64,000 nt of DNA from an uncultured bacterium (GTDB lineage: Bacteria > Oederibacteriota > Muellerivitia > Muellerivitales > Muellerivitaceae): the NCBI GenBank assembly GCA_964529445.1, contig CAZGWJ010000001.1, forward strand, positions 14,863-78,862, in the 5' to 3' direction. Below, in pieces: positions 1,881-57,369 of the stretch. The position numbers and the translations under genes are program-made. Numbering within the stretch: position 1 is the first letter of the stretch; every line of letters begins with the position of its first letter. The notes under the pieces were generated by a model. The model worked only from the letters and a program-made list of their open reading frames with translations, ran no database searches and was not told the DNA's origin.

Positions 1881-2061
1881 CTTCAGAATTATGAAGGGTT
1901 ATTGGGATGTGGCCAAATAGATTCGATCGGTATCAATTCAAAAAACGGTAAGCAATTCACTGGTGTCCAAGACGTCCGCCCTTCACGGGTCACGAGCCGT
2001 CAAACCCTTGTTTTGGACAGGCTCGAACACACAACCACGAAAAAGCCCCCTCTCCCCTTCC

Positions 2062-6268: not shown

Positions 6269-6320
6269 TATTCTATTATTTGTCAAGGGGCAAATGGCGA
6301 GGATAACGGCTTAATTCAAC

Positions 6321-6395
6321 GCCAACGCGAAGCCGTCCGCCTTTGGCGAGACCTCGCCATCAAGGGTTCTGGATGGCGGGCGAAGTCGCGAAGAA
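6321..6395. repeat. About 75-nt intergenic element, copy 2 (see 1806..1880)
   Basis: gccaacgcgaagccgtccgcctttggcgagacctcgccatcaagggttctggatggcgggc is near-identical to copy 1. The distal part is degenerate. Confidence 0.8.
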
Positions 6396-6512
6396 CTGCA
6401 TGGATCGGAGACGGAAACGGCCTGAGATTGCCACACCTCAGACCACGCCTACCCGCCCTGAGCGAGGCCGAAGGGTCGGCGCTGAGGTTCACAATGACGG
6501 ATATAGCACAAA

Positions 6513-27724: not shown

Positions 27725-27920
27725 GGAACCTTAACTATAACGGTTCACTAAAAGACCCGCGAAGGGAAAAAGGACGTTCGACCTCCGGGCAATCGGGGAT
27801 CCGGACAGAGGTTATTCGTTGTCCAAATGGGGGGCGATTTCCAGGCCCGTTAAAGGAGGGGCATTTGATAGAATAAACATCCGTTTTACAGGGCCATTTT
27901 CTATGTTGGAGGATGATTCG

Positions 27921-30252
27921 ATGAGAAAGAGAACCCCGATCCTGGTCGCCTTCCTTGCGCTGGTGTTGTCGGTCGGACTCCATGCCTGCAAGAGCAAGGA
28001 CAACCCCGTTGCGCCGCCTGCCACGACGAATCCTCCCACGAGCACCTTCACGCTGTGCGTGAACGCCTCCAATACCCCCTGCACCTGGAGCCCGACGCCC
28101 ACTCGCACGCCTTCCCCGACTCGCACCCCCTCCGCTACTTTCACGGCCACCACACCGGGTGCCGCCACCTTCACACCGACCCTCACGCCCACGGCGACCA
28201 ACACCTGGTCGCCCACCCTTTCCTTCACGAACACCTTCACCTCGCCGCCCACGGCTACCTTCACCAACACGAACACGCCCTATACGGGAAGCGGCATCCA
28301 GGGCAATGTCACCTTCACGGGTGGGGGATTGAGCACCACCAACCCCGCCTACCTTTACGTGTCCTCCCATCCCTCTTTCATGGCGGAGGGGAGATCCGCA
28401 ACCCTCACGACGAACGGAGGAGCCTACTTCATCTCTCCCATGGGGTTGGGGACCTACTACATGGTGGTCTGGAGGGATGGGAACGCCGATGGGGATTACG
28501 TCGATCACCCCCGGCAGGGCGACTATTACCAGATCTACCAGGGTGATTCCACCCTCCCGGCCGTGGACGGTATCGCCGTCACGGCGGGCGGGATGACTAC
28601 CGTGGACGTGACCCTCACGACGGATTACCGATTCAGCGGCATCTCCGGGAACGTCTATTACCTGGGGAGCGGGACCGTGGACAACGAGCACCGTCTCTAT
28701 GTCCAATCCTACACCGACGCCACCTACATGACACAGGACCCCAACCAGATCGGGCCGGGGGACGTGACGTCGAACGGCGGCCGTTACGATTGCCTCAGCA
28801 CCAGCGCGGGCCCTCTGTACCAGTTGGTCTTCTATGACGCCGACGGCAGCGACGCGCTCTCGCCGGGCGACCCCTTCGTCGTGACCGGGGCCTACACCCC
28901 GTCCGTATCTCTCAGCCGCAACGTGACCTTCGGGGACGGCGTGGCGGGCGGCGACCTGGAGAACGAGTGGGAAGACATCACGGGCACTCTTCGGGCGGCC
29001 GGAACCCTGCAGTATTCCGGGAGCGTGACCCAGGTGTCCGCCTCCAATCCCATCATTCTCGCGGCCTGGCTCGACCCGAATCTGGACAGCGATCCAGTCG
29101 CCCAGTACGTGTACTACAACGGCGCAAGCGGGGGCTATTTGTTCAACCCCCCGGTGGGCGGGCCCTTCTACGCCATCGCGATCATGTTGGCGGGAGGTCT
29201 TGCCAATAACGGGCCCTCCGTCGGCGACCCGTACTACGTCATCGACACGGGTTGTTCCGTGCCGCCCACGGCGTGGACCGTTTCGGGACCCTCGTCGCTG
29301 GATATCACGATCAACGACTCTTGCCGCCTGGAGGGCGTCTACGGCACCGCGAACTACACCGGCGGCGTGACGGAGGTGAACGGGGACAACCGCCTCTGCA
29401 CCGCGGCCTATGCCGATCCCCTCTACCAGACCCGCGTGGGTTTTGTCGAGGATGTGAGCACCAATGGCGGGCGATACGACCTGCTTTGCCCCGGTTCGGC
29501 GGGAACGACCCTCTACCAGCTGGCATGGCTCGATGCCGACGGCGACCGGCGCCTGGATGTGGGCGAGATCTACGAGGCGCAGGGTCCCTTCGTGTCGGGG
29601 ATCGCCATGACGCGGGACATCAGCATCGGGGATGACAAGGTGTGGACGGGACGGTTCCTCCAGGGGAAGGTGAGCTATTCCGGGGCGGGGAGCGTGAACG
29701 CCACCTATCCGCTCCTGGCCCACCTGGAATGCAATGCCACCTTCGACGGGAGCTGTCCAGGATGGGAGAACCGGGACGAGGAGGTCTGGGTGAATGGCGG
29801 GTACTACCATATCCCGGTGCCGCTGACCTACTCGACCGTCTACGCGGCCTTCGTCTACAACGCGGCGGGGCTTCCGATGATCGACGGGCCCCACGACGCT
29901 TCCCGACGTGGTGGTGGGGACCACCTGCATGATCCCGGGAGTGAGGGGCTTGGTGACCTATATCCCTGGCGGGGTGAGCGAGAGCTGTCCCCTCTACGTG
30001 AGGGCCTATGCCGACCTCGCCCGTACCATCGAACTGGGGACGGCCCGGACGTTCGCGAGCGGCGGTCGTTATGATGTCGTGCTCACGAACACGGCGCCTG
30101 GGACGACCGTCCACTTGCGGGCCTATTACGACACCAACTGCAACCACGACATCGATGCCGGCGACAAATGGGACGATGTGGGTTCGGCCGTGGTGGATCT
30201 CGGGGTGGCCAGCAACAACATCAGCTTCTCGGGCAGCAACACGCTCCCTTAA
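27921..30252 (+). pseudogene. Secreted lipoprotein with Thr/Pro-rich linker and at least four roughly 100-aa repeats. The reading frame switches near 29875..29885 (frame 0 to frame +1).
   Basis: MRKRTPILVAFLALVLSVGLHAC (lipobox), a GGAGGA RBS, and a TPTPTRTPSPTRTPS linker. Repeats share NGGRYD...LYQL.W/FxDADGD. The ORF 27819..30074 dies in junk after ...NAAGLPMIDGPHDAS, while ORF 29908..30252 continues the repeat pattern (SGGRYDVVL...). Confidence 0.6.
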
Positions 30253-30727: not shown

Positions 30728-30804
30728 GGACGTTTAGCTCAGCTGGTTAGAGCGTCGCGTTCACATCGCGAAGGTCGCTGGTTCAAGTCCAGCAACGTCC
30801 ACCA
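30728..30804 (+). tRNA. tRNA-Val (anticodon CAC)
   Basis: GGACGUU acceptor stem, GCUC D-stem, anticodon loop UUCACAU, TΨC arm GCUGG-UUCAAGU-CCAGC, discriminator A, encoded CCA. Confidence 0.85.
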
Positions 30805-30947: not shown

Positions 30948-31128
30948 AAACAACGGATCTCACGAACCCCTCTCCCTTGATCCCTCCCCCGCGAGCAGAG
31001 GAGGGAGATGGTTTTTCCCTCGCCCGTTTACGGGAGAGGGCCGAGCCGCCCGAGGCCACCCGCCGAGGGCGAAGTTGGCTCGCACAGATTCAGGGAATCT
31101 GCGAAGGGAGAGGGGGCCAAGGCAGTGG

Positions 31129-32910
31129 TCAGCCCAGGCGTTTCCTCAGCGCCTCCATCTGGTCCTTCATCTTGGAAGGGAGACGATCGCCAAAGGTCGC
31201 GAAATACTTCTCCGCGTCGGCGAGGTCGCTCTTGAAGGATTCCTTGTTCACGCGCATCAGTTCCGCGTAGTCCTCCTTCGAGAGGTCCAGGCCCTTGAGG
31301 TCCAGGTCGCCTTCCCGGGGCATCCATCCGATGGGGGTCTTTTCCGCGTCCACCTTGCCCTCCACGCGCTCGCACATCCACTTCAGCACGCGGGCGTTCT
31401 CCCCGAAGCCGGGCCACAACCAGCGGCCCTGCCGGTCCTTTCGGAACCAGTTCACGTAGAAGCAGGTCGGGGCGTTCTCGCCGAGTTTCTCGCCCATGCG
31501 GAACCAGTGGGCGAGGTAATCGCCGGCGTGGTAACCGATGAAGGGGGTCATGGCGAAGGGGTCCCGGCGCAGTTTCTGGCCCACGTCCAGGGCCGCGGCC
31601 GTGGTCTCGGAGGCCGCCGTGGCACCCAGGAACACTCCGTGGTCGAAGTCGAACGCCTGGTGCACCAAGGGGATCGTCGTCGATCGGCGCCCGCCGAACA
31701 CGAAGATGTCGATGGGAACGCCGTTCGGGTCCTCCCAGTCGGGGCAGATGACCGGGCATTGCGAGGCGGGCGCCGTGAATCGCGCGTTGGCGTGCGCCGC
31801 CGGCTCCTTGCAGGCCGGCGTCCACTCGTTGCCCTTCCAGTCGATGGCGTGCTCGCAGGCGGCATCGTGCCCCTCCCACCAGACGTCCCCATCGTCCGTG
31901 AGGGCGCAGTTGGTGAAGATGGTGTTCCTCTCGGCCGAACGCATGGCCATGGGGTTCGACTTCATCGAGGTGCCGGGCGCCACACCGAAGAAGCCGGCCT
32001 CGGGATTGATGGCGTAGAGGCGGCCGTCAGGGCCGATCTTCATCCAGGCGATGTCGTCCCCGATGCATTCGGCCTTCCATCCGGGGATCGTGGGGGTCAG
32101 CATGGCGAGGTTGGTCTTGCCGCAGGCCGAGGGGAAAGCCGCGGCAATATGGAACCGGCGTCCCTCGGGGTTCGTGAGGCGCAGGATGAGCATGTGCTCG
32201 GCGAGCCAGCCCTCCTGACGACCCATGAAGGACGCGATGCGAAGGGCCAGGCACTTCTTGCCGAGAAGCGCGTTGCCCCCGTAGCCGGAACCGTAGGACC
32301 AGATGAGTGTTTCCTCGGGAAAGTGCGCGATGTACTTCTGCTCGATGGGGGCGCAGGGCCAGGGCTTGTCCTTCTGCCCGGCGGCCAGGGGAGCCCCGAT
32401 GGAGTGGAGACAGGGGACGAACTCGCCGTCCGAACCCAGGGTTTCCAGGACTTTCTTCCCGACGCGGGTCATGATGTGCATGTTGACGACGACGTAGGCC
32501 GAGTCGGTGATCTCCACGCCGATCTTGGCGATAGGACTGCCGATGGGTCCCATGGAGAAGGGAATGACGTACATCGTGCGGCCCCTCATGCATCCGTCGT
32601 AGAGCTGGCGCATGGTTTTTTTGAGCTCTCCGGGGTCGATCCAGTTGTTCGTGGGGCCCGCGTCCTCCTGCTTCCGGGAGGCGATATAGGTGCGGTTCTC
32701 CACACGGGCCACATCGGAAGGGTCCGAACGGAACAGGAAACTGTTCGGCCTCTTGCGCACGTTCAGGCGGGTCGCGGCGCCGGTAGCGACCATTTCCTCC
32801 AGCAACCGGTCGTATTCGTCCCTGGACCCGTCGGCCCAGACGACACGGTCGGGTTTGCAGAGGGTCTTGATCTCCTCCACCCAGGCGAGAAGTTTCTTGT
32901 GTTCCGTCAT
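31129..32910 (-). CDS. pckG: Phosphoenolpyruvate carboxykinase (GTP)
   Basis: 593 aa, [36 protein letters not shown]..., typical GTP-PEPCK. Confidence 0.95.
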
Positions 32911-33146
32911 GACGCTCCTCCTTCAAGAAGGCCCGAAGCCCTCTATATTCCCCGTGGCAACCCGCCCGGGGTTGGGCGAGAGTTTAACAACGCAGGCAAG
33001 CAATAACAACAAATATCCCCCGTTTTTCGAGTCCTGCGCTTTCGGGGGGGCCGATGGGGGAAGGATTCTTCGGGCTGGGCGTTATGGGTGTGAAAGGTTT
33101 GAAAAGTGTGAAGGTGTGAAAGGGCAGGAAAAAGATGAACTTTTGG

Positions 33147-33192
33147 GTTGTTCTCCGCGTCTCTGCGTTTCCGCGGTTCCCGTTCCTGTGTT
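33147..33192. repeat. Dispersed CTCTGCG-decamer element, abutting the stop of the 564-aa gene
   Basis: gttgttctccgcgtctctgcgtttccgcggttcccgttcctgtgtt. Confidence 0.65.
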
Positions 33193-34887
33193 TTACGCCT
33201 TCATCTTGCGGAGGAACTCGAAGTTGCTCAGCCGGATCTCCGGGAAGCCCTGGGCGTCTGTGACGAGCCGCCCCCGGGAGTCGCGCGACACCATGACATG
33301 GTTGCCCCGAAGGTTCAGGTCCTCCACCCCCACGGCGGCCAATTTCCGGCGGGTCCGGTCCAGCAGGGCGAAGTACATGTCCTTGTCGATGAGGTTCTCC
33401 TTGTAGGCGCGCAGGGCGTCGATGCCCTCGTAGTAGTCGCCGTCCTGGTCGGCCAGCTTCTCGTCGGGTCCGTTCCAGTAGCCCCAGATGATGATGTAGT
33501 CGCGATTGGGCTTGAGGACGGGCTCCCCGTCGGGCGTGACGAGCACCTCGTGGGAATGGTACCGGGAACCGTCGAAGACGCTTCGGGAGATCTCGGTGGC
33601 GCTGTCGGACATGTAGATGGCGCGGGGATAGATGCAGGCCACGCCCCGCTGGGCCAGTTCCACGGCCAGGGAGACCTCCTCGAAGGGGCTGTTGTACCCG
33701 TGGGACAGGATCTTCTGCTCGTCCTCGCGGAAGGGGTCCATGTCGGGCTGTTGGCCCACGCGGGAGGCCTGCAGGACCAGGTGGATGCCGTCCTTGGTGA
33801 TGGTGTGGTACATCTCGCTGTAGACAGAGATCTTCGTCTTGGGGAAGTGCCGCCAGCGCTCGGGGAGGAAGTAGTCGTAGAGGACGGGGTCCTTCCCGAC
33901 GACCCAGAGGCGGCCCTTCACGCTCTCCACGCGTCCGTACACGTAATCCACCCCCAGCAGGTTGACGGCGTGCAGGCTGGATTCGGGGTTCTCCTCCGTC
34001 CGGACCTTGAAACGGTCCCGCTGGCGCTTCAGGTATTCCTGGCGCTTCTGCTGGCGCACGCGCTCCTCGTTGGAGAGGGTGCGCTCCAGGAGCTCGAAGT
34101 CCACGAGGGCGTAGAGGGTGCGCCCGTCGCGGGTGCGGGCCAGGGTGCGCTCCGATTCGGGCCGGACGATGATATGGTCCGGCTTGTTGTCCCGGACCTT
34201 GAAACCGGCGTCTTCCATGACCTGTTGGGCGTCCAGGGCCAGGCCTTTCATGTTCTCGCGGCTGATGATGCCGGCCGTGAAGGCCTGGTGGGCGTCGATG
34301 CCCTTGATCCACTCGTACACCACGGCGTAGAGGCGGTGCATGTCGAGGGTCACCTCGTCGTGCGAGCGCAGTTTCGAGAGCATCTTGTGTTCCTTGCGGC
34401 CGCTCTGCCAAAGGTCAACGGTCGCGGAGGCCACGAAGATGGCCAGCGGCTTCTGGACCACGATGCGCCGTCCCGAGTGGTAGAGCTTGTTGCGAAGCTC
34501 CTTGAGCAGGGAGAACTCCTCGAAGGGACTGTTGAAGGCCGCGCCCTCCAGCACGTCCAGTTCCTCAGCGCCGGGGATGTCCTGGCCCATGCGGTTCCAC
34601 TTCATCACGATGTCCTTGGAATGCCCGTTCACGGATTTGGTCCGGATCTTGTAGATGGAACTGGTGCCGGAAAGTCGCGTCGAATGCGATTCGAACCAGT
34701 CACGATCCAGCCAGTAGTTGGAAGGATCCAGCAGGTCCAGGAAGGGAAGGCCTTCCGCCGTGACATAAAGCTCGCCCGTGTCGAGGGTCAGGTGGGCATA
34801 CTCGACGCCCAGGACCTTGGTGATGCGGTTCTTTTTCCGGTCCTTGACGCCCTTGTGCCAGGTTTTCAGTTGGGAGGAAGGCGGCAT
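33193..34887 (-). CDS. Hypothetical 564-aa protein made of two homologous halves, each with atypical-kinase-like motifs (RIO/Kdo/APH-like fold suspected)
   Basis: Duplicated segments AAFNSPFEEFSLLKELRNK / GYNSPFEEVSLAVELAQRG. Half 1 has IVMKW, the hinge-like YEWIKG, DHIIVRP and LVDFELL. Half 2 has YIIIWGYW, GNHVMVSRD and IRLSNFEFL. Balanced composition, so the real strand is minus. Confidence 0.7.
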   Translation of the reverse strand: MPPSSQLKTWHKGVKDRKKNRITKVLGVEYAHLTLDTGELYVTAEGLPFLDLLDPSNYWLDRDWFESHSTRLSGTSSIYKIRTKSVNGHSKDIVMKWNRMGQDIPGAEELDVLEGAAFNSPFEEFSLLKELRNKLYHSGRRIVVQKPLAIFVASATVDLWQSGRKEHKMLSKLRSHDEVTLDMHRLYAVVYEWIKGIDAHQAFTAGIISRENMKGLALDAQQVMEDAGFKVRDNKPDHIIVRPESERTLARTRDGRTLYALVDFELLERTLSNEERVRQQKRQEYLKRQRDRFKVRTEENPESSLHAVNLLGVDYVYGRVESVKGRLWVVGKDPVLYDYFLPERWRHFPKTKISVYSEMYHTITKDGIHLVLQASRVGQQPDMDPFREDEQKILSHGYNSPFEEVSLAVELAQRGVACIYPRAIYMSDSATEISRSVFDGSRYHSHEVLVTPDGEPVLKPNRDYIIIWGYWNGPDEKLADQDGDYYEGIDALRAYKENLIDKDMYFALLDRTRRKLAAVGVEDLNLRGNHVMVSRDSRGRLVTDAQGFPEIRLSNFEFLRKMKA

Positions 34888-35035
34888 GGTCCCTCGTTGC
34901 GACGAACGGTTGGCTGATTATACACCGGGGTTAAAAAAGGAGGGCGGCTGAACACCCACAATTACCGCAGAGTCACAGAGGCCTGTCGATCGAGGAAGGA
35001 TCATCATGCCGTCAGAAGAAGTAAGATCTCTGTGT

Positions 35036-35085
35036 CTGAGCGCTTCTGCGGTTCTCGTTGCCGTTCCGCGGTCGTATCGGAATCC
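35036..35085. repeat. Dispersed CTCTGCG-decamer element
   Basis: atctctgtgtctgagcgcttctgcggttctcgttgccgttccgcggtcgt. Confidence 0.6.
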
Positions 35086-35116
35086 ATCCCCTCCATCGGT
35101 GGTTAAAATGGCTTGA

Positions 35117-35165
35117 GTTGTTCTCTGCGGCTCTGCGCCTCTGCGGTTCCCGTTTTCGTGTTGTC
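35117..35165. repeat. Dispersed CTCTGCG-decamer element (three tandem units), abutting the queD stop
   Basis: gttgttctctgcggctctgcgcctctgcggttcccgttttcgtgttgtc. Confidence 0.65.
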
Positions 35166-35169
35166 GGGA

Positions 35170-35640
35170 TTAGTTTCCGCCGCGGTAGGTGACCGAACTC
35201 GAATCCGACTCCCACAGCGTCATCTCGACCGGCGTCACGCCCTCCTTCTTCAGCCGGGGGGCGAGGCGTTTCCAGAGGTCGCGAATGATGTTCTCGGCGG
35301 TGGGCTGGAGGGTGGGCGTCGAGCGGAACGGCTCCACCTCCTGGTTGATGAAGCGGTGGTCGTAGCGGGAACGGACCTCCGAATCCAGGATCTCCTTCAG
35401 GCGCCGGAAATCCACGACAAAACCGGTGTCGCTCTTCACGGGTCCCTTCGCGGTCACGCGGAGGCGGTAGGAGTGGCCATGGGGAAATTCCGCGGCCCTC
35501 GGGTCGTCGGCACGATAGCCCGAGCAACGTCCGAAGACCGACAGGTTCCTCTCGCGGCTCCAGGCGGGGTTGTGGAGGTAGTGGGCCGCCTCGAACGCGA
35601 CCTCTTTGGATATCTCGACTAATTCTTTAGACACGGACAA
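35170..35640 (-). CDS. queD: 6-carboxy-5,6,7,8-tetrahydropterin synthase / 6-pyruvoyl-tetrahydropterin synthase family
   Basis: FEAAHYLHNP...CSGYRADDP...HGHSY, with the Zn-ligand His/Cys pattern of PTPS/QueD. Confidence 0.8.
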   Translation of the reverse strand: MSVSKELVEISKEVAFEAAHYLHNPAWSRERNLSVFGRCSGYRADDPRAAEFPHGHSYRLRVTAKGPVKSDTGFVVDFRRLKEILDSEVRSRYDHRFINQEVEPFRSTPTLQPTAENIIRDLWKRLAPRLKKEGVTPVEMTLWESDSSSVTYRGGN

Positions 35641-35646
35641 TCTCCT

Positions 35647-35685
35647 TACCGCAGAGAACGCAGGGATCGCAGGGAACAGCTAAGA
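35647..35685. repeat. Dispersed CTCTGCG-decamer element (inverted orientation)
   Basis: accgcagagaacgcagggatcgcagggaacagctaagaccc. Confidence 0.6.
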
Positions 35686-35748: not shown

Positions 35749-35783
35749 AGGGTCGTTCTCTGCGAACTCTGCGTACCCTGCGG
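35749..35783. repeat. Dispersed CTCTGCG-decamer element, abutting the nadE stop
   Basis: gggtcgttctctgcgaactctgcgtaccctgcggt. Confidence 0.6.
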
Positions 35784-37466
35784 TTAATCCTCGGTGAAGC
35801 GCTGCGCGAGGGGCATCCGACGGCCGATGCCGAAGGCCTTCGGGGTCACCTTCAGCCCGGGCGCCATCTGGCGTCTCTTGTATTCGTTGCCCGACACCAT
35901 GCGAACGACCTTCTCCACCACCGATCGCTTGAATCCGGCTTTCACGATGCGGGAGGCTTCCCAATGGTCCTCCACGTAGTGCTTGAGGATGGCGTCCAGC
36001 GTGTCATAGGGAGGCAGGGTGTCCTGGTCGGTCTGGTGGGGCCTGAGTTCCGCCGAGGGGGCTTTCCTGAAGACGGCTTCGGGGATGAGCCGCCGGTGGC
36101 GGTTGGCGTAGCGGGCGAGGGCGTACACCTGGTGCTTGGGAAGGTCCGAGATGACGGCGAGACCGCCGCACATGTCGCCGTAAAGGGTGCTGTAACCGAC
36201 GGCCAGTTCGCTCTTGTTGCCCGTGGAGAGGACGAGACGGCCGAACTTGTTGGAGAGGGACATGAGGAAGAGGCCGCGCAGGCGGGCTTGCGCGTTCTCC
36301 TCGGCCAGTCCGGGTTTCGTGCCCCGGAAGGCGGGAGCGAGGGAGGAAAGGGCCGCGCGGAAGGACCTCGTGATGGGAAGGACCCGGAAGTCGATCCCGA
36401 GGGCTTGGGCGAGGGTTTCGGAATCCTTCACGCTGCCCCGCGAGGAGTAGGGTGAGGGCATCGTGACGCCCATGACGTTCTCCCTGCCCAGGGCCTCGAC
36501 GGCGAGACAGGCCACGAGGGCCGAGTCGATCCCTCCCGAGAGGCCGATGAGCACCCGCGAGAAGCCGCATTTGTTCACGTAATCGCGGGTGCCTAAAACC
36601 AGGGCGCGGAACTGGGCTTCGACGATGGTGGAGGAGGACGGCCGGACGTCGAGCCGCGGGCGGGACGGATCGAAGACCAGAAGGTCCTCCGCGAAGTCGA
36701 GGGCGCGGGCCAGAAGGCGGCCCCTCGCGTCCACGGCCATCGAGGCGCCGTCGAACACGAGGTCGTCGTTACCGCCCACCAGGTTGCAGTACAGGACGGG
36801 GCATCTCAGGCGACGGGCCGCGGTCGCGAGGACGGCCTGTCGCTGGGCGAGCTTGTCGCGGTGGAAGGGGGAAGCCGAGAGGTTCAGCACCAGGTCGGGA
36901 CGGTGGGCCGCCAGTTCCCGGACGGGGTCGCGGTCGTAGAGGGGGCGGCGGTTTCGCCGGGGATTCGCGTTCCAAAGGTCCTCGCAGATGGTGACCCCGA
37001 TCCGAAGGCCATCCAGACGATACGGCGGTGCCAACCGGGGCGCCGGCTCGAAGTAACGGTCCTCGTCGAAGACGTCGTAGTTGGGGAGCAGGACCTTCCG
37101 ATCGACATGGAGGATACGGCCGTCCTTCACCGTGAGAGCCGCGTTGTGGAGGTGCTTGCCGGTATTCCGGTTGGGAAGCACGGTCCCCACGACGGCCGCG
37201 ATGCCGCGGGCCGAGCGTGCCACCCGCTTCAGGGACTTATCGGCGGCCTTCAGGAAAGCGGGGCGCTCCAGCAGGTCGCGGGGGGGATAGCCGGTGAGCG
37301 TGAGCTCGGGAAAGATCGCGAGGCCGCAATCGGCCGCCCGGGCGCGTTCAAGGGAGCGTTCGATCTTGAGGGCGTTTCCCTCAAAGTCCCCGATGGTGGT
37401 GTTGATTTGACATAAAGCTATCTTCAAGTCAGGATGTCCGTCCGGGTTTCGTCGATGTTTCGTCAC
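35784..37466 (-). CDS. nadE: Glutamine-dependent NAD+ synthetase
   Basis: 560 aa. N-terminal CN-hydrolase domain (LKIALCQINTTIGDFEGN) plus C-terminal NAD synthetase domain (GLSGGIDSALVA P-loop). Confidence 0.95.
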   Translation of the reverse strand: MTKHRRNPDGHPDLKIALCQINTTIGDFEGNALKIERSLERARAADCGLAIFPELTLTGYPPRDLLERPAFLKAADKSLKRVARSARGIAAVVGTVLPNRNTGKHLHNAALTVKDGRILHVDRKVLLPNYDVFDEDRYFEPAPRLAPPYRLDGLRIGVTICEDLWNANPRRNRRPLYDRDPVRELAAHRPDLVLNLSASPFHRDKLAQRQAVLATAARRLRCPVLYCNLVGGNDDLVFDGASMAVDARGRLLARALDFAEDLLVFDPSRPRLDVRPSSSTIVEAQFRALVLGTRDYVNKCGFSRVLIGLSGGIDSALVACLAVEALGRENVMGVTMPSPYSSRGSVKDSETLAQALGIDFRVLPITRSFRAALSSLAPAFRGTKPGLAEENAQARLRGLFLMSLSNKFGRLVLSTGNKSELAVGYSTLYGDMCGGLAVISDLPKHQVYALARYANRHRRLIPEAVFRKAPSAELRPHQTDQDTLPPYDTLDAILKHYVEDHWEASRIVKAGFKRSVVEKVVRMVSGNEYKRRQMAPGLKVTPKAFGIGRRMPLAQRFTED

Positions 37467-38975: not shown

Positions 38976-39007
38976 TTTTGGAAGTTGAGTCACCCTCGAT
39001 CGTCTTT

Positions 39008-39036
39008 CCCTGTGACCTCTGCGTTCTCTGCGGTCC
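39008..39036. repeat. Dispersed CTCTGCG-decamer element upstream of the Lpd-like gene
   Basis: cccctgtgacctctgcgttctctgcggtc. Confidence 0.6.
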
Positions 39037-39051
39037 ATGTGAGGTGTATTC

Positions 39052-42410: not shown

Positions 42411-42432
42411 TTCCTCGCCCCGCTCCCTTTGT

Positions 42433-42456
42433 CCCTCCCCCGCTTGCGGGGGAGGG
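42433..42456. repeat. GC hairpin CCCTCCCCCG-CTTG-CGGGGGAGGG followed by GCAATTCC. Same family as 2062..2085.
   Basis: Both copies are followed by gggcaat(c/t). Confidence 0.55.
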
Positions 42457-47346: not shown

Positions 47347-47570
47347 GGTTATCTCCGATAGAAAGTAAACCCGCAGGGGAGGCGGGTGCCGGCATTCTAT
47401 ATCTAGCAAACGGAAATGAGGAAAATTGAAATCGGTACAACGAAAGAACCATGACCGTCAATTCAACGACGTTTGTGGTGGGCGCGCCCGTGTTTTGCGA
47501 TGCTTCCATTCGCAATGACGAATTATATGACGGGGTCGTTCTTTGCGGGCTTGGCGTACTTGGCGGTTAA

Positions 47571-50153
47571 TTAATCGGTCGTGCCGAAAGCCTCGGCCGG
47601 TATAGGTTCCCACTTCTCGGCTCCGGGCGGCATCCACAGGAGGTGCAGGGCCATATCGGACCCTTCCTCCTTCCTGTATTCCAGCGTCAGGGGGTAGGAT
47701 CCCGGTCCCAACATCAGGCCGGGCGAGCGGCCCCCGTCGTTCACGGGCAGTTCCTTGCCAGCGACCGTCAGGATCGCCTGGTCCAGCGTCAGCACGTCGA
47801 AGCGGTATCGGCCGCCCTGGGTCACCTTCAACCACCCTTGCCAGCGGATCGAGAAGGGCGGGAAGTCCTCGAACGGGAAATCCTTCTTGTTCGTGAAGTT
47901 GATCTGAGGGTCCCATTGGATGGAAACGAGTTCCCCCTTGTTCGCGTAGTAGCCCTTGAGTCCGGTGGCCAGGGGCAAGGTCGAGAGGAACATCGGGGAG
48001 TCGAAGCGGGCGGATTTTCCGCTCGGCAGAATCATCTGGACCTCGGCGCGCGCGGGTCCGGGCCGGTGGATGAGCGCCAACCTCACCCGGTGGAAGCCGC
48101 GCACCAGCGTGACGGGCCTGTTCCAGGCGACCGGGTCGCGCCCGATCCTCAGGTAGGCCTCGCCATTGGTCTTGGCCCGGAAAACGTAGGCACCGCTCTG
48201 CTCGAACCAACCGACCGCATCCAGCGTGGCCTTGTACGGTCCATCCGGCAGGGCATCGCCCAGTTCCCGGAAAGTGCCGGTTCCATCCTGTCCCGTGATG
48301 ACGGCTTTCATGCCCTGGGCCGCCCGGGCGGCAGCCTCCGGGATGGTGAGGAAGGTCAGAAGCGCCCGGCCCTTCGGGTCGAGGAAACGATCTTCCTTCG
48401 CCTCCGGATAGAGGCGTTTCAAGTGAGCCACCACGCCGGATTTGTATTCCTCAAGGACATAAACCAGGTCGCGGCCCTCCGGGAGGACGGGCGCCGCCAA
48501 GTGCCGGGGGTATTCGAAGGTGTGGACGTTATCGCGGTTCCCGTAGGAGAGGAAAGACACCGTATTGTGCCGGCTGTAGAGGGGGGTCACGCAGAAGACG
48601 GCTTTCTTCCCGAGACGCTCGATCATGCGGCCGATCCGCGTGGCCTCCACGTGGGGTCCGTGCCAGCAATCGGCATTCTTCGCCTGCGAGATGAAGTAAA
48701 CGTGGAAGTTCAGGTAGGTGATGAGGGCCAACAGGACGGCCAAGCCCTTGTTGCGCCTCCTGCGCCATTTCGGCTTGAGGACCTGGAGCCGGTCGTAAAG
48801 ACGGACGAGTGCGGTGCCCGCGAGGATGGCAATGAAAGGCGTGAGCGAGAAGAGCCGACTGGATTGCGCGGAGGAGTCGGCGGCCAGCAGGGCCGGCATT
48901 GTCATCACGATGAGTCCTGCGAGGGCAAAGGCCTCCCATTTGCGGCGGCGGATGTGGCGCACGGCCTGCAGGATCCCCAGGACGAAGAGAATGCCCGTGA
49001 AGGGGTCCAGCATCGGAGCGCCGGGCAGGTTGTGACGCGGGTTCAGGTCGCCCTGGTAGTTGAACATCAACTTGGTGCCGGTGATGTTGCGGACCAGGGG
49101 CATCACGCTCTTTTCGGCCTTCATCTGCGAGAAGATCCAGAGATCGCCTTCCCGGTTTCCGATGTTCTTCGAGAGGACCATGTGAAGCAGCAGAGGGAGT
49201 GCCAATGCGACGAAGGCGATCAGCATTGCCCGGTGGGGCTTGAAGAGAAGGGCGGCCTGTCTGATCCCCCTGGGACGGAGCAGGAGCACGAAGACCAGGA
49301 GGAGCAGGGGGGCGATCTTGAAGGCCTGATAGGTATAGAGGCCCAGACCGAGCACGACACCCGACAGGATGAAGGCCCAGAGACGCTTCTTCACGACCTT
49401 CCGGGCCACCAGGTAGAGCGCGAGGGCGCCGAAGAGATAGAGAGGCACTTGCACGGTCGGGTAGCCGTTGCGGCTGTAGATGACGTGCCAACGCATGACG
49501 GCCAGCAGGAAGAGGGATGCCAGGGCCACGCGGGGGCCCGAGAAGTGGCGAACGACGTAATAGACCAGGGGCATCGCCAGGAGCGCCAGGAAGACGAAAA
49601 AGAGGTGGAAAGCAAGATAGGAGGATCCGAAAACCCCGAACCAACCGGCCAATTGCGTGAAGAGAAGGGGTTCGGGGACCGCCTGGGTGTAGGCGTCGAA
49701 GAAGGGGTTCCATCCTTCCTTCAATATGCGGAGGGCGTTGAGGCCGGTGAGACCCTGGTCGCTGTGCATTCCGGAGGGCATCTCGGAGAGGCGGAAGACG
49801 CGCAGGAGGAGGGCGAGGAGCATCGTGGAGCCGAACAAAGTGGCTTCGACGCGAAAGGGAACGGGTTTTTCCCTGGGCGGCGTCTTGCGGTCGGGGGGGA
49901 CGAAAAACAGGAGGAGGACGGCGGCGAGGACGAACAGGGAAAGCCCGATCCAGAGGGTGGGTTTCACCCCCGGGATGACAAGGCAGGCCTGCCCCAGGAT
50001 CAAAAGCCCGAGGGCCAGCCAGTAGGCATGGGCCTTGAGGACCTTTTTCACTATGAGGGGATTATATAAGGAAACCACCGATTGGCGGTTTCGATTTTGT
50101 AGGGGCGACCCCATGCGGTCGCCCACTCGAAATTCACGGATCGGGTGGCCCAC
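47571..50153 (-). CDS. GT39/PMT_2-family membrane glycosyltransferase (paralogue 4) with C-terminal PA14-like domain
   Basis: MHSDQGLTGLNALRILKEGWNPFF and GDLNP motifs. The C-terminus WQGWLKVTQGGRYRFDVLTLDQAILTVAGKEL...LTLEYRKEEG is PA14-like. Confidence 0.75.
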   Translation of the reverse strand: MGHPIREFRVGDRMGSPLQNRNRQSVVSLYNPLIVKKVLKAHAYWLALGLLILGQACLVIPGVKPTLWIGLSLFVLAAVLLLFFVPPDRKTPPREKPVPFRVEATLFGSTMLLALLLRVFRLSEMPSGMHSDQGLTGLNALRILKEGWNPFFDAYTQAVPEPLLFTQLAGWFGVFGSSYLAFHLFFVFLALLAMPLVYYVVRHFSGPRVALASLFLLAVMRWHVIYSRNGYPTVQVPLYLFGALALYLVARKVVKKRLWAFILSGVVLGLGLYTYQAFKIAPLLLLVFVLLLRPRGIRQAALLFKPHRAMLIAFVALALPLLLHMVLSKNIGNREGDLWIFSQMKAEKSVMPLVRNITGTKLMFNYQGDLNPRHNLPGAPMLDPFTGILFVLGILQAVRHIRRRKWEAFALAGLIVMTMPALLAADSSAQSSRLFSLTPFIAILAGTALVRLYDRLQVLKPKWRRRRNKGLAVLLALITYLNFHVYFISQAKNADCWHGPHVEATRIGRMIERLGKKAVFCVTPLYSRHNTVSFLSYGNRDNVHTFEYPRHLAAPVLPEGRDLVYVLEEYKSGVVAHLKRLYPEAKEDRFLDPKGRALLTFLTIPEAAARAAQGMKAVITGQDGTGTFRELGDALPDGPYKATLDAVGWFEQSGAYVFRAKTNGEAYLRIGRDPVAWNRPVTLVRGFHRVRLALIHRPGPARAEVQMILPSGKSARFDSPMFLSTLPLATGLKGYYANKGELVSIQWDPQINFTNKKDFPFEDFPPFSIRWQGWLKVTQGGRYRFDVLTLDQAILTVAGKELPVNDGGRSPGLMLGPGSYPLTLEYRKEEGSDMALHLLWMPPGAEKWEPIPAEAFGTTD

Positions 50154-51895: not shown

Positions 51896-52930
51896 TTGGA
51901 CACCCCCCTTCGACCCTATTCCCCCCTCTCCTTCCTCAAGGGACCCGTCTTCCTCTGGGTCCTTTGGACCGCTGTCATCGGCGGCGTGGCCTGGTGGTAC
52001 ACCCGCGACCTTTTCATCGCCCAGGCCGTGGGGGGTACCGGCGCCATCGCCCTTCTCCTACATTCCATCTGGCTCAAGGTGCGCCTCGACAGCCGCTGGC
52101 TCGTCGATCTCCAGGTGTTCCTCGTCCGCACCGGCGCCTTGTCCGATCAGCACCGTGTGAAGCGCATCTTCATGCCCTGGGAGGCGGGTGCCGCCCGGAG
52201 GAAATTCCTGGCCTCGACCCTGGAAAATGTGCGCGACATGGAAAAGAGGATGCACGAGGCGCGTCATGCCCTCGACAAGTTCGTGGGGACCAAGGCCTCC
52301 CAGTTCGCCGCGAAATACGCTTCGGGCAACCAATGGGGCGGGGAGATGGTGCCCGTCTATGTCCTTTTCGCCGATGTGCGGGGGTTCACGCGCATGACGG
52401 AAAAATTGAAGCCCACCGAGACCGTCACCTTCCTGAACCGCTTGTTTTCGGCCCTCGAGGAGGTGGTCCGGGAATCCGGCGGCGAGGTCAACAAGTACAT
52501 CGGGGATTCCATCCTGGCTTTCTTCCCCCGCTCACTCGAGGATGAGGCCCCGGCCGTCAAGCGGATCCTACTCGGAGCCCTCCGGATGATGGACCGGTTC
52601 CTCGAGATCGACGCGAAATACAAGAGCGATTACAGCGTGACGCCGGAGGTGGGATTCGGCATGGGCTTGGCCGCGGGCGTGGCCGTCCTCGGCAACGTGG
52701 GGTCCATGAACCGCATGGAGTTTACGCTGGTGGGCGATACCGTGAATACGGCCTCCCGCCTCTGCTCCATCGCTGAGCACGGCCAGATCCTCGTGAACGA
52801 GGAGATGGCCCGGGTCGCGGAGGGGATGTTCCGCATGGAGGCCCTGGGGGCCGTCAAGCTGAAGGGGAAGGCCGAGCCGGTCGTTCCCACCGTGATCATG
52901 GGGGAGAAACTGCAGCCCGGGCTGGCATGA
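51896..52930 (+). CDS. Membrane-anchored class III adenylate cyclase (paralogue 1)
   Basis: Two N-terminal TM helices, then the cyclase homology domain (CHD): FADVRGFT (metal Asp), NKYIGDS (metal Asp plus Lys), a Thr in the LVGDTVNTASRL region (Lys/Thr pair, so adenylyl-specific). Confidence 0.8.
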   Translation: MDTPLRPYSPLSFLKGPVFLWVLWTAVIGGVAWWYTRDLFIAQAVGGTGAIALLLHSIWLKVRLDSRWLVDLQVFLVRTGALSDQHRVKRIFMPWEAGAARRKFLASTLENVRDMEKRMHEARHALDKFVGTKASQFAAKYASGNQWGGEMVPVYVLFADVRGFTRMTEKLKPTETVTFLNRLFSALEEVVRESGGEVNKYIGDSILAFFPRSLEDEAPAVKRILLGALRMMDRFLEIDAKYKSDYSVTPEVGFGMGLAAGVAVLGNVGSMNRMEFTLVGDTVNTASRLCSIAEHGQILVNEEMARVAEGMFRMEALGAVKLKGKAEPVVPTVIMGEKLQPGLA

Positions 52931-53753: not shown

Positions 53754-54818
53754 GTGAGCGCCCCCATGCCCGAGTCCCCCAAACCGCGGTTTCCCGGTTT
53801 TCTCCGATCGCTCCTGCCCTGGCTTGCCTGGCTGGGCGTCAGCGCCGCGGTCGGGGTTTTCCTCTCGGCGGCCTTCAACAACAGGGATGTCTTCCTGTGG
53901 GCGGCCGGAACCGCAGCGGTCGCCCTGCTGGTTTTTCGTTGGGCCTATGACGCTTACCGCCTGCTGTCCGTGATGGATCTCTTCTATCGGCATCATATGC
54001 TTCCGGCCGTCCTCCGGCGTCCCTGGATCTTCTGGCCCTGGGGACCTGCACTGGGCTTGAGAATCGTCCTCCGCGCGACCGTGCACGAGTACCAGAAGGT
54101 CTCCAAGAAGATGCACGAGGCCACGGGGGCGCTCGAGAAGTTCGTGGGCGCAGGCGCGGCCGAGCGCAGTATCCGGGCCGCCGCGAAACCGGCCATGGGC
54201 GGGGAATCCCGGAGGGTCTTCTGCCTGTTCGCGGATGTCCGCGGCTTCACGCGCATGACCGAGCGCCTCAAGCCGGAGGAGACGGTGGATATCCTGAACC
54301 GCATCTTCACCGAACTGGACGCCGTCATCGTCCAGTACGGGGGAGAGATCAACAAGTACATCGGGGACGCCGTTTTCGCGTATTTCAGGTGTCCCTACGA
54401 CAACGAGGAGGTCGCGGCCCGCAACGTCCTGCGCGCGGCCTTGAGGATGCAGGAGTCCTTCGACGCCTTGAACGTGAGGATCCGGAACGCCTCCTACAGC
54501 GCCCCGGTGGAGATCGGGCTGGGCATCGGGTTGACGGCGGGAACGGCCATCCTGGGCAGCATGGGCAGTGCCAACCGGATGGAATACACCCTCATCGGCG
54601 ATGTCGTGAACCTGGCCTCCCGGCTGTGCGCCATCGCAAAACCCCTTGAAGTGCTCGTGAACGAGGAGATGGCCGAGATGGTGCAGGAGTATTTCGACAT
54701 GACCTCCCTGCCCCCCGTGGAGTTGAAGGGGAAGACGGGCCTGCAGGTCCCCTATGTCATCGTCGGCGAGAGGATGATGCTGACCAAGGGGCTCGCCGAG
54801 AAGGGAAAACGTCTTTGA
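53754..54818 (+). CDS. Membrane-anchored class III adenylate cyclase (paralogue 2)
   Basis: FADVRGFTRMTERLKPEET...NKYIGDAVFAYF...LIGDVVNLASRL. Confidence 0.8.
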   Translation: MSAPMPESPKPRFPGFLRSLLPWLAWLGVSAAVGVFLSAAFNNRDVFLWAAGTAAVALLVFRWAYDAYRLLSVMDLFYRHHMLPAVLRRPWIFWPWGPALGLRIVLRATVHEYQKVSKKMHEATGALEKFVGAGAAERSIRAAAKPAMGGESRRVFCLFADVRGFTRMTERLKPEETVDILNRIFTELDAVIVQYGGEINKYIGDAVFAYFRCPYDNEEVAARNVLRAALRMQESFDALNVRIRNASYSAPVEIGLGIGLTAGTAILGSMGSANRMEYTLIGDVVNLASRLCAIAKPLEVLVNEEMAEMVQEYFDMTSLPPVELKGKTGLQVPYVIVGERMMLTKGLAEKGKRL

Positions 54819-55870
54819 ACCGCATTCCTTCCGAAAAGGTTCCTCCGCCGCGGGAACACCGGCCTGGGCGGGATGGTGCCGTCGAGGCGGCGTTCATCCT
54901 CTTCGCCCTTCTGGGGGTCGCCGGGATCCTCTTGTCCGCGAACCGGGATTCCTTGCCAGCCGCCTGGAGGATCGCCGCTCCCTGGATGACGGGTCTGGGG
55001 GTCTTGGGCCTGCTTTGGTGGTGTGGCGCATCGCTGGTGATGCTGCTCCAGCACCAGCTGGATGCGGTCAAGGCCCTTCCGGCCGGCTTCCAGCGCATGA
55101 GGTTGTGGCAGGTCGGAACCCCGCTGGATGGATTCCACCGCCTGGCAACGGCACTCGCGAAGGCGCAGGTCGAAAGGGATGAACGGATCGCTTCCCTTCA
55201 GGCCAGCCATGACCGCTACGTCGGGACCACGATGTCGGATCGGGCGCGCCGCATGGCCTCCCAGGAGGAACTGGGCGGCGTCAAGAGGCGCGTCTTCGTC
55301 ATGTTCTCCGACATCCGCGGTTTCACCCGCATGACCGAGCAGTTGAAGCCCGAGGAGGTCGTCGAGGTTCTCAACATCTGTTTCACGGAGTTCGAGAAGG
55401 TGATCCGCGAGAACGGGGGGGAGATCAACAAGTACATCGGCGACGCGGCGTTCGCGTATTTCCGGATGCCGCACGGCGATCTCGAAGCGGGGGTCCGGGC
55501 CGTTCTTCGCAGTGCGGTGAAGATGCAGGAGCGGTTCGATTTCCACAACTCCCGATTCAAGGTCTCCTACAGCAAGCCGGTCGAGATCGGGCTGGGGCTC
55601 GGCGTGACGGCGGGGGAGGCCATCCTCGGGAACATCGGTTCGCCCCAGCGCATGGAGTTTACCCTGATCGGGGACGTGGTGAACCTGGCCTCGCGGCTTT
55701 GCGGCATCGCCCGGCACGGGCAGATCCTCGTCAGCGAGGAGATGGCCGAGATCGCGAAGGCCTGGTTCGAGCTTTCGCCCCAACCGGAGGTGCAGTTGAA
55801 GGGAAAGCTGGTGCCCCACCGGCCTTACGCGGTCGTGGGGGAACGGATGGGTTTCGGGAGGGATATGTAG
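54815..55870 (+). CDS. Membrane-anchored class III adenylate cyclase (paralogue 3). The TTG start overlaps the upstream stop.
   Basis: FSDIRGFTRMTEQLKPEEV...NKYIGDAAFAYF...LIGDVVNLASRL. Confidence 0.75.
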   Translation: MNRIPSEKVPPPREHRPGRDGAVEAAFILFALLGVAGILLSANRDSLPAAWRIAAPWMTGLGVLGLLWWCGASLVMLLQHQLDAVKALPAGFQRMRLWQVGTPLDGFHRLATALAKAQVERDERIASLQASHDRYVGTTMSDRARRMASQEELGGVKRRVFVMFSDIRGFTRMTEQLKPEEVVEVLNICFTEFEKVIRENGGEINKYIGDAAFAYFRMPHGDLEAGVRAVLRSAVKMQERFDFHNSRFKVSYSKPVEIGLGLGVTAGEAILGNIGSPQRMEFTLIGDVVNLASRLCGIARHGQILVSEEMAEIAKAWFELSPQPEVQLKGKLVPHRPYAVVGERMGFGRDM

Positions 55871-57206: not shown

Positions 57207-57369
57207 AGCATCATTCTTGGCTTCTGGTCTCGAAGGGTTCGGCCCTCTCCCGTGGTACATCCCCCGGACGGGGGGCAAGGGGCGGGGGGGATGCCGTTGA
57301 ATTTCCCTCTCCCTCGACGGGAGGGGGAAGGGTGAGGATCCGATCCCGGGTTGCGCGAAGGGAAACACC

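Follow-up and report, generated by a model that had tools for sequence, protein, structure and literature searches.

Ser/Thr protein kinases are marked by a Lys-Pro after the catalytic Asp, a signature that, to our knowledge, does not occur in APH, choline-kinase or NIS-type enzymes. RIO and Bud32, which are universal archaeal and eukaryotic ribosome or KEOPS factors, have no Lys-Pro and retain the Asn of the catalytic loop. We know of no dedicated bacterial protein kinase for the node that connects PEP and pyruvate with oxaloacetate and malate. The isocitrate dehydrogenase kinase/phosphatase AceK (PDB 3EPS), built from one kinase domain and a regulatory domain, has an established target and chemistry. 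Tandem kinase-pseudokinase arrangements are represented by the JAK family (JH1/JH2) and by the plant tandem kinase proteins, for example WTK1/Yr15 (PMC6170490).

Here we describe a bacterial protein of 564 aa whose single chain contains a pair of paralogous domains of kinase fold, only one of which has the catalytic residues, and whose family is undescribed, with neither a name nor a database model. It is encoded in the window, the whole stretch of 64,000 nucleotides that was analysed. In the reading that we favour, with a probability of about 0.5, the N-terminal half (N-half) would be catalytic, the C-terminal half (C-half) would not, and the substrate would belong to the C3/C4 node, the protein preferably being a regulatory protein kinase. 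It differs from JAK and the plant tandem kinases in placing the putative active domain before the pseudo domain, in having the pseudo domain as the more conserved half, and in the domains themselves, which are minimal bacterial protein-kinase-like (PKL) units, unrelated in sequence and duplicated independently. It likewise has no sequence relationship to AceK, for which the target is established, whereas the target here is proposed from gene neighbourhoods only.

Results

The complete open reading frame (33193..34887, minus strand) begins with ATG, preceded at 3-8 nt by a GAGGGA Shine-Dalgarno sequence. No transmembrane segment is predicted (maximum 19-aa hydropathy 1.4), and by sequence the product is a soluble, cytoplasmic protein. 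The initial annotation placed the gene between pckG and queD-nadE, and all of these neighbours can be identified. pckG (31129..32910, minus strand), encoding the GTP-dependent PEP carboxykinase (PEPCK), lies downstream at a distance of 283 bp and in the same orientation; its product scores 971 bits against an NCBIfam equivalog cut-off of 504 and matches Pfam PEPCK_N and PEPCK_GTP. On the other side are a PTPS/QueD-family gene (35170..35640) and a glutamine-dependent NAD synthetase gene (35784..37466). Scanning the surroundings of the gene for Rfam families, promoters and terminators gave no specific signal; a single weak terminator-like site lies upstream, and the gap to pckG has none.

The duplication that had been read from the sequence is borne out by pairwise and profile comparison. 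Residues about 25-269 and about 310-560 are 23% identical in a BLASTP alignment of 270 columns (E=3e-13), and the profiles of the two halves are paired by hhalign with a probability of 99.5% (E=2e-22, 235 columns). The motifs quoted for the halves are present as NSPFEE at 119-124 and 399-404, DHIIV with its counterpart NHVMV, and VDFELL with SNFEFL. The halves are joined by a linker (residues 293-304; 33976..34011, minus strand, as are all features within the gene), where the confidence of the structure model dips (mean pLDDT 70 for the block of residues 291-300) and conservation, at 0.63, is the lowest in the protein.

We have little doubt about the PKL fold; the organisation is bilobal, with an N-lobe of β-sheet and αC and a C-lobe carrying αE and the catalytic and metal-binding loops. 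Throughout the family, the N-half has a complete catalytic set and the C-half a degenerate one. The N-half (residues 20-292; 34012..34830) is a minimal domain with an intact set of catalytic motifs. The equivalent of the Gly-rich loop, L72-S-G74-T-S-S77 (34657..34674), lies between modelled strands 68-70 and 77-81; G74 is invariant in an alignment of 42 sequences, and Gly occupies this position in 41 of the 46 N-type and 42 of the 55 single-domain representatives. K96 (34600..34602; V-M-K-W-N-R-M-G), the candidate β3 ATP-binding Lys, is located in modelled strand 91-96 and is Lys in 43 of the 46 N-type and 50 of the 55 single-domain representatives, with Arg in most others. The candidate αC Glu is E124 of N119-S-P-F-E123-E124 (34516..34533), at the start of modelled helix 120-137, which is kept in 46/46 and 53/55, respectively. 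Between strands 228-230 and 238-240 is the catalytic-loop equivalent D233-N-K235-P236-D-H238 (D-x-K-P-x-H; 34174..34191), whose D233, K235 and H238 each occur in 45/46 N-type representatives and, at aligned positions of single-domain representatives, in 52/52, 51/52 and 51/52. Finally, D263-F-E265 (34093..34101), containing the candidate DFG-equivalent metal-binding Asp, falls between strands 258-260 and 266-268, and D263 is present in all 44 aligned N-type and all 50 aligned single-domain representatives. K96, E124, D233 and D263 all occupy the expected secondary-structure elements of the model. This placement and the near-invariance of these four residues over 46 N-type and 55 single-domain representatives support the atypical-kinase-like character first suggested from the motifs.

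Past D263-F-E, the model shows only strand 266-268 and helix 270-292, so that the N-half ends with β9 and one long helix; in the C-half, 7 residues follow the equivalent N555-F-E557. Because both domains stop directly after the DFG-equivalent strand, the part that binds substrate in classical kinases (activation segment and helices αF-αI) is missing.

In the C-half (residues 305-562; 33202..33975), the paralogous PKL domain, both catalytic Asp are missing, and Q373, N525 and N555 stand in place of the β3 Lys, catalytic Asp and DFG Asp. Q373 (33769..33771) is the equivalent of K96, a position that is variable in the HMM alignment of 12 C-type domains (K6, R3, Q2, E1). The degenerate catalytic loop N525-L-R527-G-N-H530 (33298..33315) has Asn for Asp, Arg for Lys and Gly for Pro and keeps the His; these positions (N524, R526, G527 and H529 in the numbering of the alignment tool) are either invariant or conserved to 90% or more. 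The degenerate DFG equivalent, N555-F-E557 (33217..33225), again has Asn for Asp, with Asn in 8/12 and Asp in 1/12 C-type domains. The hhalign/HMM alignment confirms the two Asn from which this half had been called a pseudokinase partner. The C-half has motifs of its own (LWVVG, LYDYFLPE, YPRAIY, IWGYWNGPDE and EDLNLRG), a mean majority fraction of 0.73 versus 0.69 for the N-half and 74 near-invariant positions versus 62; pseudokinase-like in lacking both Asp, it is by these measures nevertheless under strong constraint.

More than 2257 homologues share the length of the protein. At 50% identity the family, which is strongly conserved, falls into 420 clusters, and it spans about 525 species-level genomes. 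It is confined to a few bacterial phyla, its hosts including Planctomycetota, Omnitrophota, Elusimicrobiota, Spirochaetota and FCPU426, among others, and all loci and named database entries inspected are from assemblies of uncultured organisms (MAG or SAG). Single-domain relatives resemble the N-half and have no C-type partner; a 290-aa gene upstream of one of them (P0190) was considered as a separately encoded C-half and rejected. The protein had not been recognised as a member of a named family, and searches agree: there was no Pfam match at E<=1 for it or any of 42 members, none in NCBIfam or PADLOC, and none in the PDB by sequence or by profile. Literature searches for bacterial PKL families in tandem, or for an atypical kinase linked to PEPCK, yielded nothing relevant.

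Compared with the eukaryotic-type Ser/Thr protein kinases (Pfam Pkinase PF00069; e.g., M. tuberculosis PknB, PDB 1MRU), to which there is no profile match, the family has His instead of the metal-binding Asn, lacks the APE motif along with the activation segment and αF-αI, carries an extra N-terminal β-sheet/helix extension of ~65 residues, and has its domain tandemly duplicated. From RIO and Bud32 (PDB 1ZP9, 1TQI, 4WW5) it is set apart by the lack of a Pfam RIO1 match and by its limited bacterial distribution, and no match was found to RIO/Bud32/APH profiles (PF01163, PF01636 and others).

Conservation of the gene neighbourhood, proposed earlier as a check, gives a mixed picture. Of 80 GTDB loci, 22 have PEPCK, PEP carboxylase, an OadA/PycB-type carboxylase or malic enzyme adjoining the family gene, as do a few loci in each of two additional samples, and pckG recurs beside family members in other lineages too. 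However, these enzymes are not next to the gene at most loci, and the neighbour censuses revealed no universal operon partner. A recurrent pair of Cache-sensor histidine kinase and sigma54 regulator was considered as DctB/DctD, but this label was rejected: among curated models it comes closest to AtoS/AtoC and ZraS/ZraR, and reaches the cut-off of neither.

Discussion

We suggest that the N-terminal domain could be the catalytic module, in which the Gly-rich loop L72-S77 would lie over the nucleotide phosphates and ATP would be positioned by the pair of K96 (strand β3) and E124 (helix αC). D233 would act as catalytic base, K235 would touch the γ-phosphate, and H238 and D263 would bind a divalent metal, with His, as in WaaP, at the place usually taken by Asn, so that the γ-phosphate is moved onto a substrate hydroxyl. 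The C-terminal domain would go back to an ancient duplication and have since lost the catalytic base, metal-binding Asp and Gly loop; it is still under equal or stronger constraint and may provide a substrate-binding or regulatory surface. The kinase-pseudokinase chain could represent the intramolecular counterpart of a dimer that the single-domain relatives would form. On the residue patterns, an active N-half with a non-catalytic C-half is reasonably probable. The gene neighbourhoods suggest a substrate in the PEP-pyruvate-oxaloacetate node, although we regard the link of the family to this node as tentative. Our preferred candidate would be a Ser/Thr kinase that regulates PEPCK, PEP carboxylase or some related enzyme, with a logic comparable to that of AceK on isocitrate dehydrogenase or of plant PEPC kinase; that it is specifically the protein kinase of PEPCK or PEPC is doubtful.

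A small-molecule enzyme is unlikely, but it is the alternative that survives best. The N-half would phosphorylate or adenylate a C3/C4 metabolite or carboxylate, for instance oxaloacetate, malate, pyruvate or a compound derived from them, and the C-half would form the substrate pocket. NIS synthetases and SidJ are precedents for adenylation. However, the Lys-Pro after the catalytic Asp is that of a Ser/Thr protein kinase, no conserved operon with a pathway was found in the neighbour censuses, and we know of no PKL enzyme that acts on C3/C4 metabolites.

There is a slim chance that the C-half, or an active site shared by the halves, carries out a non-canonical transfer of the kind seen in SelO and SidJ, such as AMPylation or glutamylation, and that 'pseudokinase' is therefore a misnomer. 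The strong constraint on the C-half is set against the variability of its β3-Lys equivalent, and since the single-domain relatives are N-half-like and lack a C-type partner, the ancestral activity would have resided in the canonical site.

Still less probable is an envelope sugar kinase like WaaP/Kdo kinase (PF06293; PDB 6DFL), acting on an LPS-core or glycan sugar. The His at Asp+5 is shared (HRDCYICH in E. coli WaaP; H238 here), whereas the Lys-Pro, the tandem architecture and a genomic context with no LPS-core cluster distinguish the family. None of the 42 members matches PF06293, and hhalign gave probabilities of <3% against E. coli WaaP and WaaY as single sequences and 0.07% against a 14-sequence WaaP profile, which is shallow (>=74% identity) because the homologue search gave only close enterobacterial WaaP sequences, and which may miss very distant homology. 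The neighbour censuses contained no LPS-core genes and few glycan genes (L098, with HldE and glycosyltransferases; L041 and L044, with GT4), and the family is missing from well-studied LPS producers. A non-enzymatic scaffold or sensor, whose halves would do no more than bind a nucleotide or metabolite and exert allosteric control over a partner, has precedent in tandem pseudokinase scaffolds of other systems but is very improbable, as the nearly invariant catalytic-base Asp and both metal ligands in 101 N-type and single-domain representatives are hard to explain without catalysis.

If the regulatory-kinase reading is true, the family would be a new, deeply conserved one within the kinase superfamily, lacking any Pfam, NCBIfam or PDB representative, and a bacterial kinase-pseudokinase tandem whose 'dead' domain is the more constrained, with natural single-domain relatives at hand for comparison. 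It would also offer a testable lead on the control of flux between PEP/pyruvate and oxaloacetate/malate in poorly known anaerobes. More doubtful is the wider proposal that anaerobic bacteria of the PVC group, spirochaetes and their relatives have in this family a regulator or enzyme dedicated to the PEP-oxaloacetate branch point, which would imply an unknown control point of central carbon metabolism together with a new catalytic family. One form that this could possibly take, by analogy with plant PEPC kinase and AceK, is a kinase switching PEPCK or PEP carboxylase; a stranger possibility is a hyper-conserved pseudokinase half with non-canonical activity on a C4 acid.

A minor observation concerns the intergenic repeats around the gene. 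The initial annotation described flanking decamers; repeats are indeed present on both sides, directly 3' of the open reading frame (33143..33192) and in two copies 5' of it (35018-35067 and 35113-35162), but the CTCTGCG units are 8-9 nt long. A mobile-element or regulatory bracket was rejected: copies also occur in other intergenic gaps of the window, and the repeats are thus not a specific bracket of this gene. The pattern has 7 matches versus 0.67 expected, and the other intergenic copies lie at about 1865, 2186, 6380, 35750, 39000 and 47533.

Gene, fold and putative active site

The tandem kinase-like gene lies at 33193..34887 on the minus strand and, as the initial annotation had proposed, forms a single ORF of 564 aa; it has an ATG start, preceded 3-8 nt 5' of the ATG by a GAGGGA Shine-Dalgarno sequence. 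Its location between pckG and queD-nadE is borne out by NCBIfam/Pfam-type identification of the neighbours: a GTP-dependent PEPCK downstream (NCBIfam equivalog, 971 bits) and a PTPS/QueD-family gene with a glutamine-dependent NAD synthetase upstream. No hydrophobic stretch in the protein reaches the length needed for a membrane helix (maximum 19-aa Kyte-Doolittle mean 1.4). Homology between its two halves, as had been claimed, is confirmed: residues 1-285 and 286-564 share 23% identity over 270 columns (BLASTP, E=3e-13; true ORF numbering, Met1 counted, here and throughout), and profile-profile comparison of the halves of a 42-sequence family alignment gives a probability of 99.5% (E=2e-22, 235 columns).

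Neither Pfam, NCBIfam, PADLOC nor the PDB (by sequence) returned a match for the protein, which the initial annotation had not recognised as a named family, and a Pfam scan of all 42 aligned members and a PDB search with the family profile were likewise negative. AlphaFold2 modelled both the whole protein (mean pLDDT 87.6, pTM 0.77) and the N-half alone (pLDDT 89.3, pTM 0.87) with confidence. When the PDB was searched by Foldseek, protein kinases (ULK2, YopO, CDK12, Rio2, haspin and PknB among them) took all top 50 places, at E-values near 1e-4 across about 210 columns. NIS synthetases, carboxylate-adenylating enzymes with a kinase-like domain, score equal to the kinases and give the longest alignments (174-178 residues). 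The confident models and the kinase matches together argue that the protein is a member of the protein-kinase-like superfamily. No known family within the superfamily stands out as the closest.

In the N-half model, the elements follow the canonical kinase order. Three strands and two helices form an N-terminal extension (residues about 19-67), after which come the G-loop region (strand 68-70, loop L72-S-G74-T-S-S77, strand 77-81), the β3 strand (91-96) with K96 at its end, and the αC helix (120-137), which begins N-S-P-F-E123-E124. Two short helices separate strands 146-155 and 184-191; helices 198-203 and 209-225 then lead to the catalytic loop equivalent (strand 228-230, D233-N-K235-P236-D-H238, strand 238-240), a hairpin, the DFG equivalent (strand 258-260, D263-F-E265, strand 266-268) and a long helix (270-292). 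Where classical kinases go on to an activation segment and a helical substrate-binding lobe, the N-half ends; the C-half follows the same plan and terminates seven residues past N555-F-E557. We infer the residue roles from this model topology and from motif spacing: the catalytic motif of Ser/Thr kinases is D-x-K-P-x-N, and the D-x-K-P-x-H of the N-half is spaced exactly like it. The His is shared with E. coli K-12 WaaP (HRD-CYIC-H), where it also lies five residues past the catalytic Asp, so it is compatible with a working kinase; WaaY keeps Asn at the corresponding position. At sequence level, however, WaaP does not appear to be a relative: against either half, hhalign gave probabilities below 3% for WaaP or WaaY and 0.07% for a shallow 14-sequence WaaP profile.

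Conservation of the two domains

All domains were aligned to the N-half model, comprising 46 N-type domains (like the first half), 55 single-domain stand-alone relatives and the 12 C-type domains (like the second half) detectable with that model. Among N-type domains, K96 is Lys in 43 and Arg in 3, E124 is present in all 46, D233, K235 and H238 in 45 each, and D263 in 44/44 aligned. The single-domain proteins are similarly strict (Lys in 50, E124 in 53, D233 in 52/52, K235 and H238 each in 51/52, D263 in 50/50), and they are far nearer the N-half (E=6e-45) than the C-half (E=1e-8). C-type domains retain the His and the Glu in 11/12 each, while the Lys position is K6/R3/Q2/E1, the D233 position N5/D3/R2 or other, and the D263 position N8/D1 or other; the equivalents in our protein are Q373, N525, R527, G528, H530 and N555. 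Strict retention, together with the likeness of single-domain proteins to the N-half, argues that the active-looking site goes back to the ancestor and has been kept strictly, and that the second domain is a derived, catalytically degenerate copy. Nevertheless, the C-half is not decaying: its mean majority fraction is 0.73 versus 0.69 for the N-half, it has 74 near-invariant positions versus 62, and it carries private motifs (LWVVG, LYDYFLPE, YPRAIY, IWGYWNGPDE and EDLNLRG).

The earlier kinase/pseudokinase interpretation is supported, with corrections. Of the candidate catalytic residues it named, K96 (IVMKW) and D263 (VDFEL) are nearly invariant in N-type and single-domain proteins, but the Asp of DHIIV (D237) varies and the conserved Asp is D233; Asn does replace both Asp residues in the putative pseudokinase partner, yet that half is the more conserved one.

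Family size and distribution

The family comprises >2257 clusters at 90% identity, all about 560 aa and all 'hypothetical', with no precomputed Pfam domain among them. Identity is 52-60% across Omnitrophota, Elusimicrobiota, Spirochaetes, Deltaproteobacteria, Kiritimatiellae, Latescibacterota and Verrucomicrobiota (database labels), and the columns of the 42-sequence alignment average 63% identity, the picture of a large and tightly conserved family. When 1.84 billion representatives were searched exhaustively with the N-half profile (HMMER), the matches formed a small and isolated superfamily of 420 clusters at E<=1e-3 (181 at E<=1e-30), and no known kinases were drawn in. Three architectures occur: tandem proteins of about 560 aa, longer ones of 640-680 aa whose second half carries an insertion, and many single-domain proteins of 275-325 aa, whose named members carry Phycisphaerae, Kiritimatiellae, Verrucomicrobia, Omnitrophica and Elusimicrobia labels and are all 'hypothetical'. 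In the longer proteins P0133, P0145, P0148, P0151 and P0163 and at loci L094/L095, which show 3-4 matched stretches, the C-half insert is about 100 aa and itself similar to part of the domain.

A pattern scan of one genome per species found a relative in 525/185,579 GTDB species genomes. The best 80 of these 525 are all metagenome-assembled or single-cell genomes, from candidate division FCPU426, Verrucomicrobiota, Omnitrophota, Elusimicrobiota, Thermodesulfovibrio/Nitrospirae, Spirochaetota, Planctomycetota, Lentisphaerota, Kiritimatiellae, Deltaproteobacteria, Auribacterota and one Actinomycetota; the closest relatives of our protein (80-82% identity) are labelled FCPU426 or Verrucomicrobia, which makes this group the probable source of the window. 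The literature searched, with two recent surveys of kinase-like and pseudokinase families in bacteria among it, contains no description of such a family. The tandem protein appears to represent a new family of unusual active/pseudo tandem architecture inside a known superfamily.

Genomic neighbourhood

A Pfam census, unbiased and covering 122 immediate neighbours at 66 dereplicated GTDB loci, with representatives verified by Pfam and NCBIfam, ranked PEPCK_GTP first (7) and PYC_OADA/biotinyl/HMGL-like carboxylase second (6), followed by malic enzyme (4) and CBS- or EIIA-regulated Na+/H+ exchangers (4-5). Enzymes of the C3/C4 node, which convert PEP or pyruvate into oxaloacetate or malate or back, are immediate neighbours at 22/80 GTDB loci. 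In the FCPU426/Verrucomicrobiota clade, PEPCK lies immediately downstream on the same strand, as in the window; it is also adjacent at L023 (divergent) and, upstream on the same strand, at L051 and the Planctomycetota loci L084 and L086. An OadA/PycB-type carboxylase is the divergent neighbour at six spirochaete loci, and malic enzyme at four Thermodesulfovibrio loci. In tblastn searches of the 80-locus flanks, which also recovered PEPCK genes masked by wrong-frame ORFs, each PEPCK, OadA/PycB and malic-enzyme match was the directly adjacent gene. Node enzymes thus recur, but at a minority of loci, and no universal operon partner was found among the neighbourhoods examined.

Two new samples served as prospective tests of this link. 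At six single-domain loci, PEPCK lies 4.6 kb off in L092/L093 and PEP carboxylase 4.6 kb off in L097, with neither at four of the six. Among 80 new metagenome loci (36 clusters at 85% identity, in which single-domain proteins are mixed with divergent tandem ones), PEPCK is adjacent on the same strand at L147, PEP carboxylase is adjacent and divergent at L124/L125, and an OadA-like gene lies 2.5 kb off in L121, while none of eight control single-copy enzymes (CysS, GltX, 6PGD, PurC, EF-Tu, RadA, PepA, PurM) occurs in the same flanks; the census of this set has no dominant neighbour family (ArgJ 3, PEPCK 1). The GTDB loci and both samples thus show an association that is recurrent, involves four non-homologous enzymes and replicates, although most loci lack it and part of it follows clade membership. 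Chance would be expected to yield <1% of loci if about 10/3000 genes belong to the node, a rough estimate rather than a computed statistic. We regard the metabolic link as a testable lead, not a result.

Two and three genes away, histidine kinase and sigma54 regulator pairs dominate the Pfam census. In Kiritimatiellae, Spirochaetota, Planctomycetota and an unclassified lineage, the tandem gene is flanked by orthologous genes for a Cache-sensor kinase and an NtrC-type regulator; the pair could be assigned to no known system, as the nearest models, AtoSC and ZraSR, both score below cut-off. At L005/L043, L031, L058, L062 and L057, across four phyla, these are an sCache_3/dCache_3 histidine kinase (48-50% identity across phyla) and a sigma54-dependent response regulator, and at L057 the next gene encodes a receiver domain fused to a formate/nitrite transporter. 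CPA2-type Na+/H+ (or K+/H+) exchangers with fused CBS or PTS-EIIA(Ntr)-like regulatory domains lie directly upstream on the same strand at L003/L017, L020 and L022 (Omnitrophota and Elusimicrobiota), L037 (Auribacterota) and L021 (Omnitrophota), and about 1.3 kb upstream on the opposite strand at L085 (Planctomycetota). TauE/SafE-type exporters are found downstream at the Thermodesulfovibrio loci L024/L025/L028/L030 and near the single-domain protein P0223 (L099), and MpsC-domain proteins recur near family members at L099 and one locus of A8.

Proposed function

We propose the N-half as an ATP-dependent phosphotransferase; the C-half would be a non-catalytic yet functionally essential partner that binds the substrate or regulates, and relatives with a single domain probably reach the same arrangement by dimerising. 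The Lys-Pro of the putative catalytic loop leans towards a protein Ser/Thr substrate, and the neighbourhoods, which point to the PEP-oxaloacetate node, suggest that the kinase regulates PEPCK or PEP carboxylase, in analogy with AceK or plant PEPC kinase. The strongest alternative is an enzyme of that node which acts on a small molecule, possibly by activating a carboxylate; conservation of an enzyme-like kind, the lack of a lobe for protein substrates and the resemblance to NIS synthetases all speak for it. A WaaP-like envelope sugar kinase, to which HldE and glycosyltransferases adjacent in L098 would point, is less likely, as are non-canonical chemistry in the C-half and a pure scaffold.

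Repeats and other features of the window

Repeats do flank the tandem gene, as the initial annotation noted, but they consist of 8-9-nt CTCTGCG units and are dispersed: the pattern has 7 hits versus 0.67 expected, and besides the copies near the gene (33143-33192, 35018-35067, 35113-35162) others lie at 1865-1885(-), 2186-2235, 6380-6400(-), 35650-35677(-), 35750-35788, 39000-39038 and 47533-47571, so they are a property of the genome and not of the tandem gene. This REP-like intergenic repeat has two to four CTCTGCG(G) units, often then GGTTCCCGTT, and occurs in both orientations, mostly abutting gene ends. A second dispersed element (2047-2085, 30967-31005, 42418-42456, 57242-57280), a C-rich tract and then a short GC hairpin (CCCCTCTCCC...CCCGCAAGCGGGAGAGGG), could be a terminator-like or REP-type hairpin. 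Two 88-nt direct repeats at 1798-1885 and 6313-6400 share 90% identity, lie 4.5 kb from each other and have no Rfam match at gathering threshold; each copy terminates in a CGCAGAG repeat unit. A 152-nt segment present three times (52622-52773, 54486-54637, 55559-55710; 67-77% identical, spacing 1.1-1.9 kb) looks like the conserved core of tandem paralogous genes. The 751-aa ORF at 27819-30074(+), which has no Pfam match, carries a Pro/Thr-rich low-complexity linker and recurring segments of the 'GDxxxxGG(R)YD' type; it probably encodes a repeat protein that is secreted or lies at the cell surface, although its 3' part may be a mis-joined frame. Between this repeat protein and pckG lies a single tRNA gene (30728-30801, plus strand; Rfam 71.7 bits).
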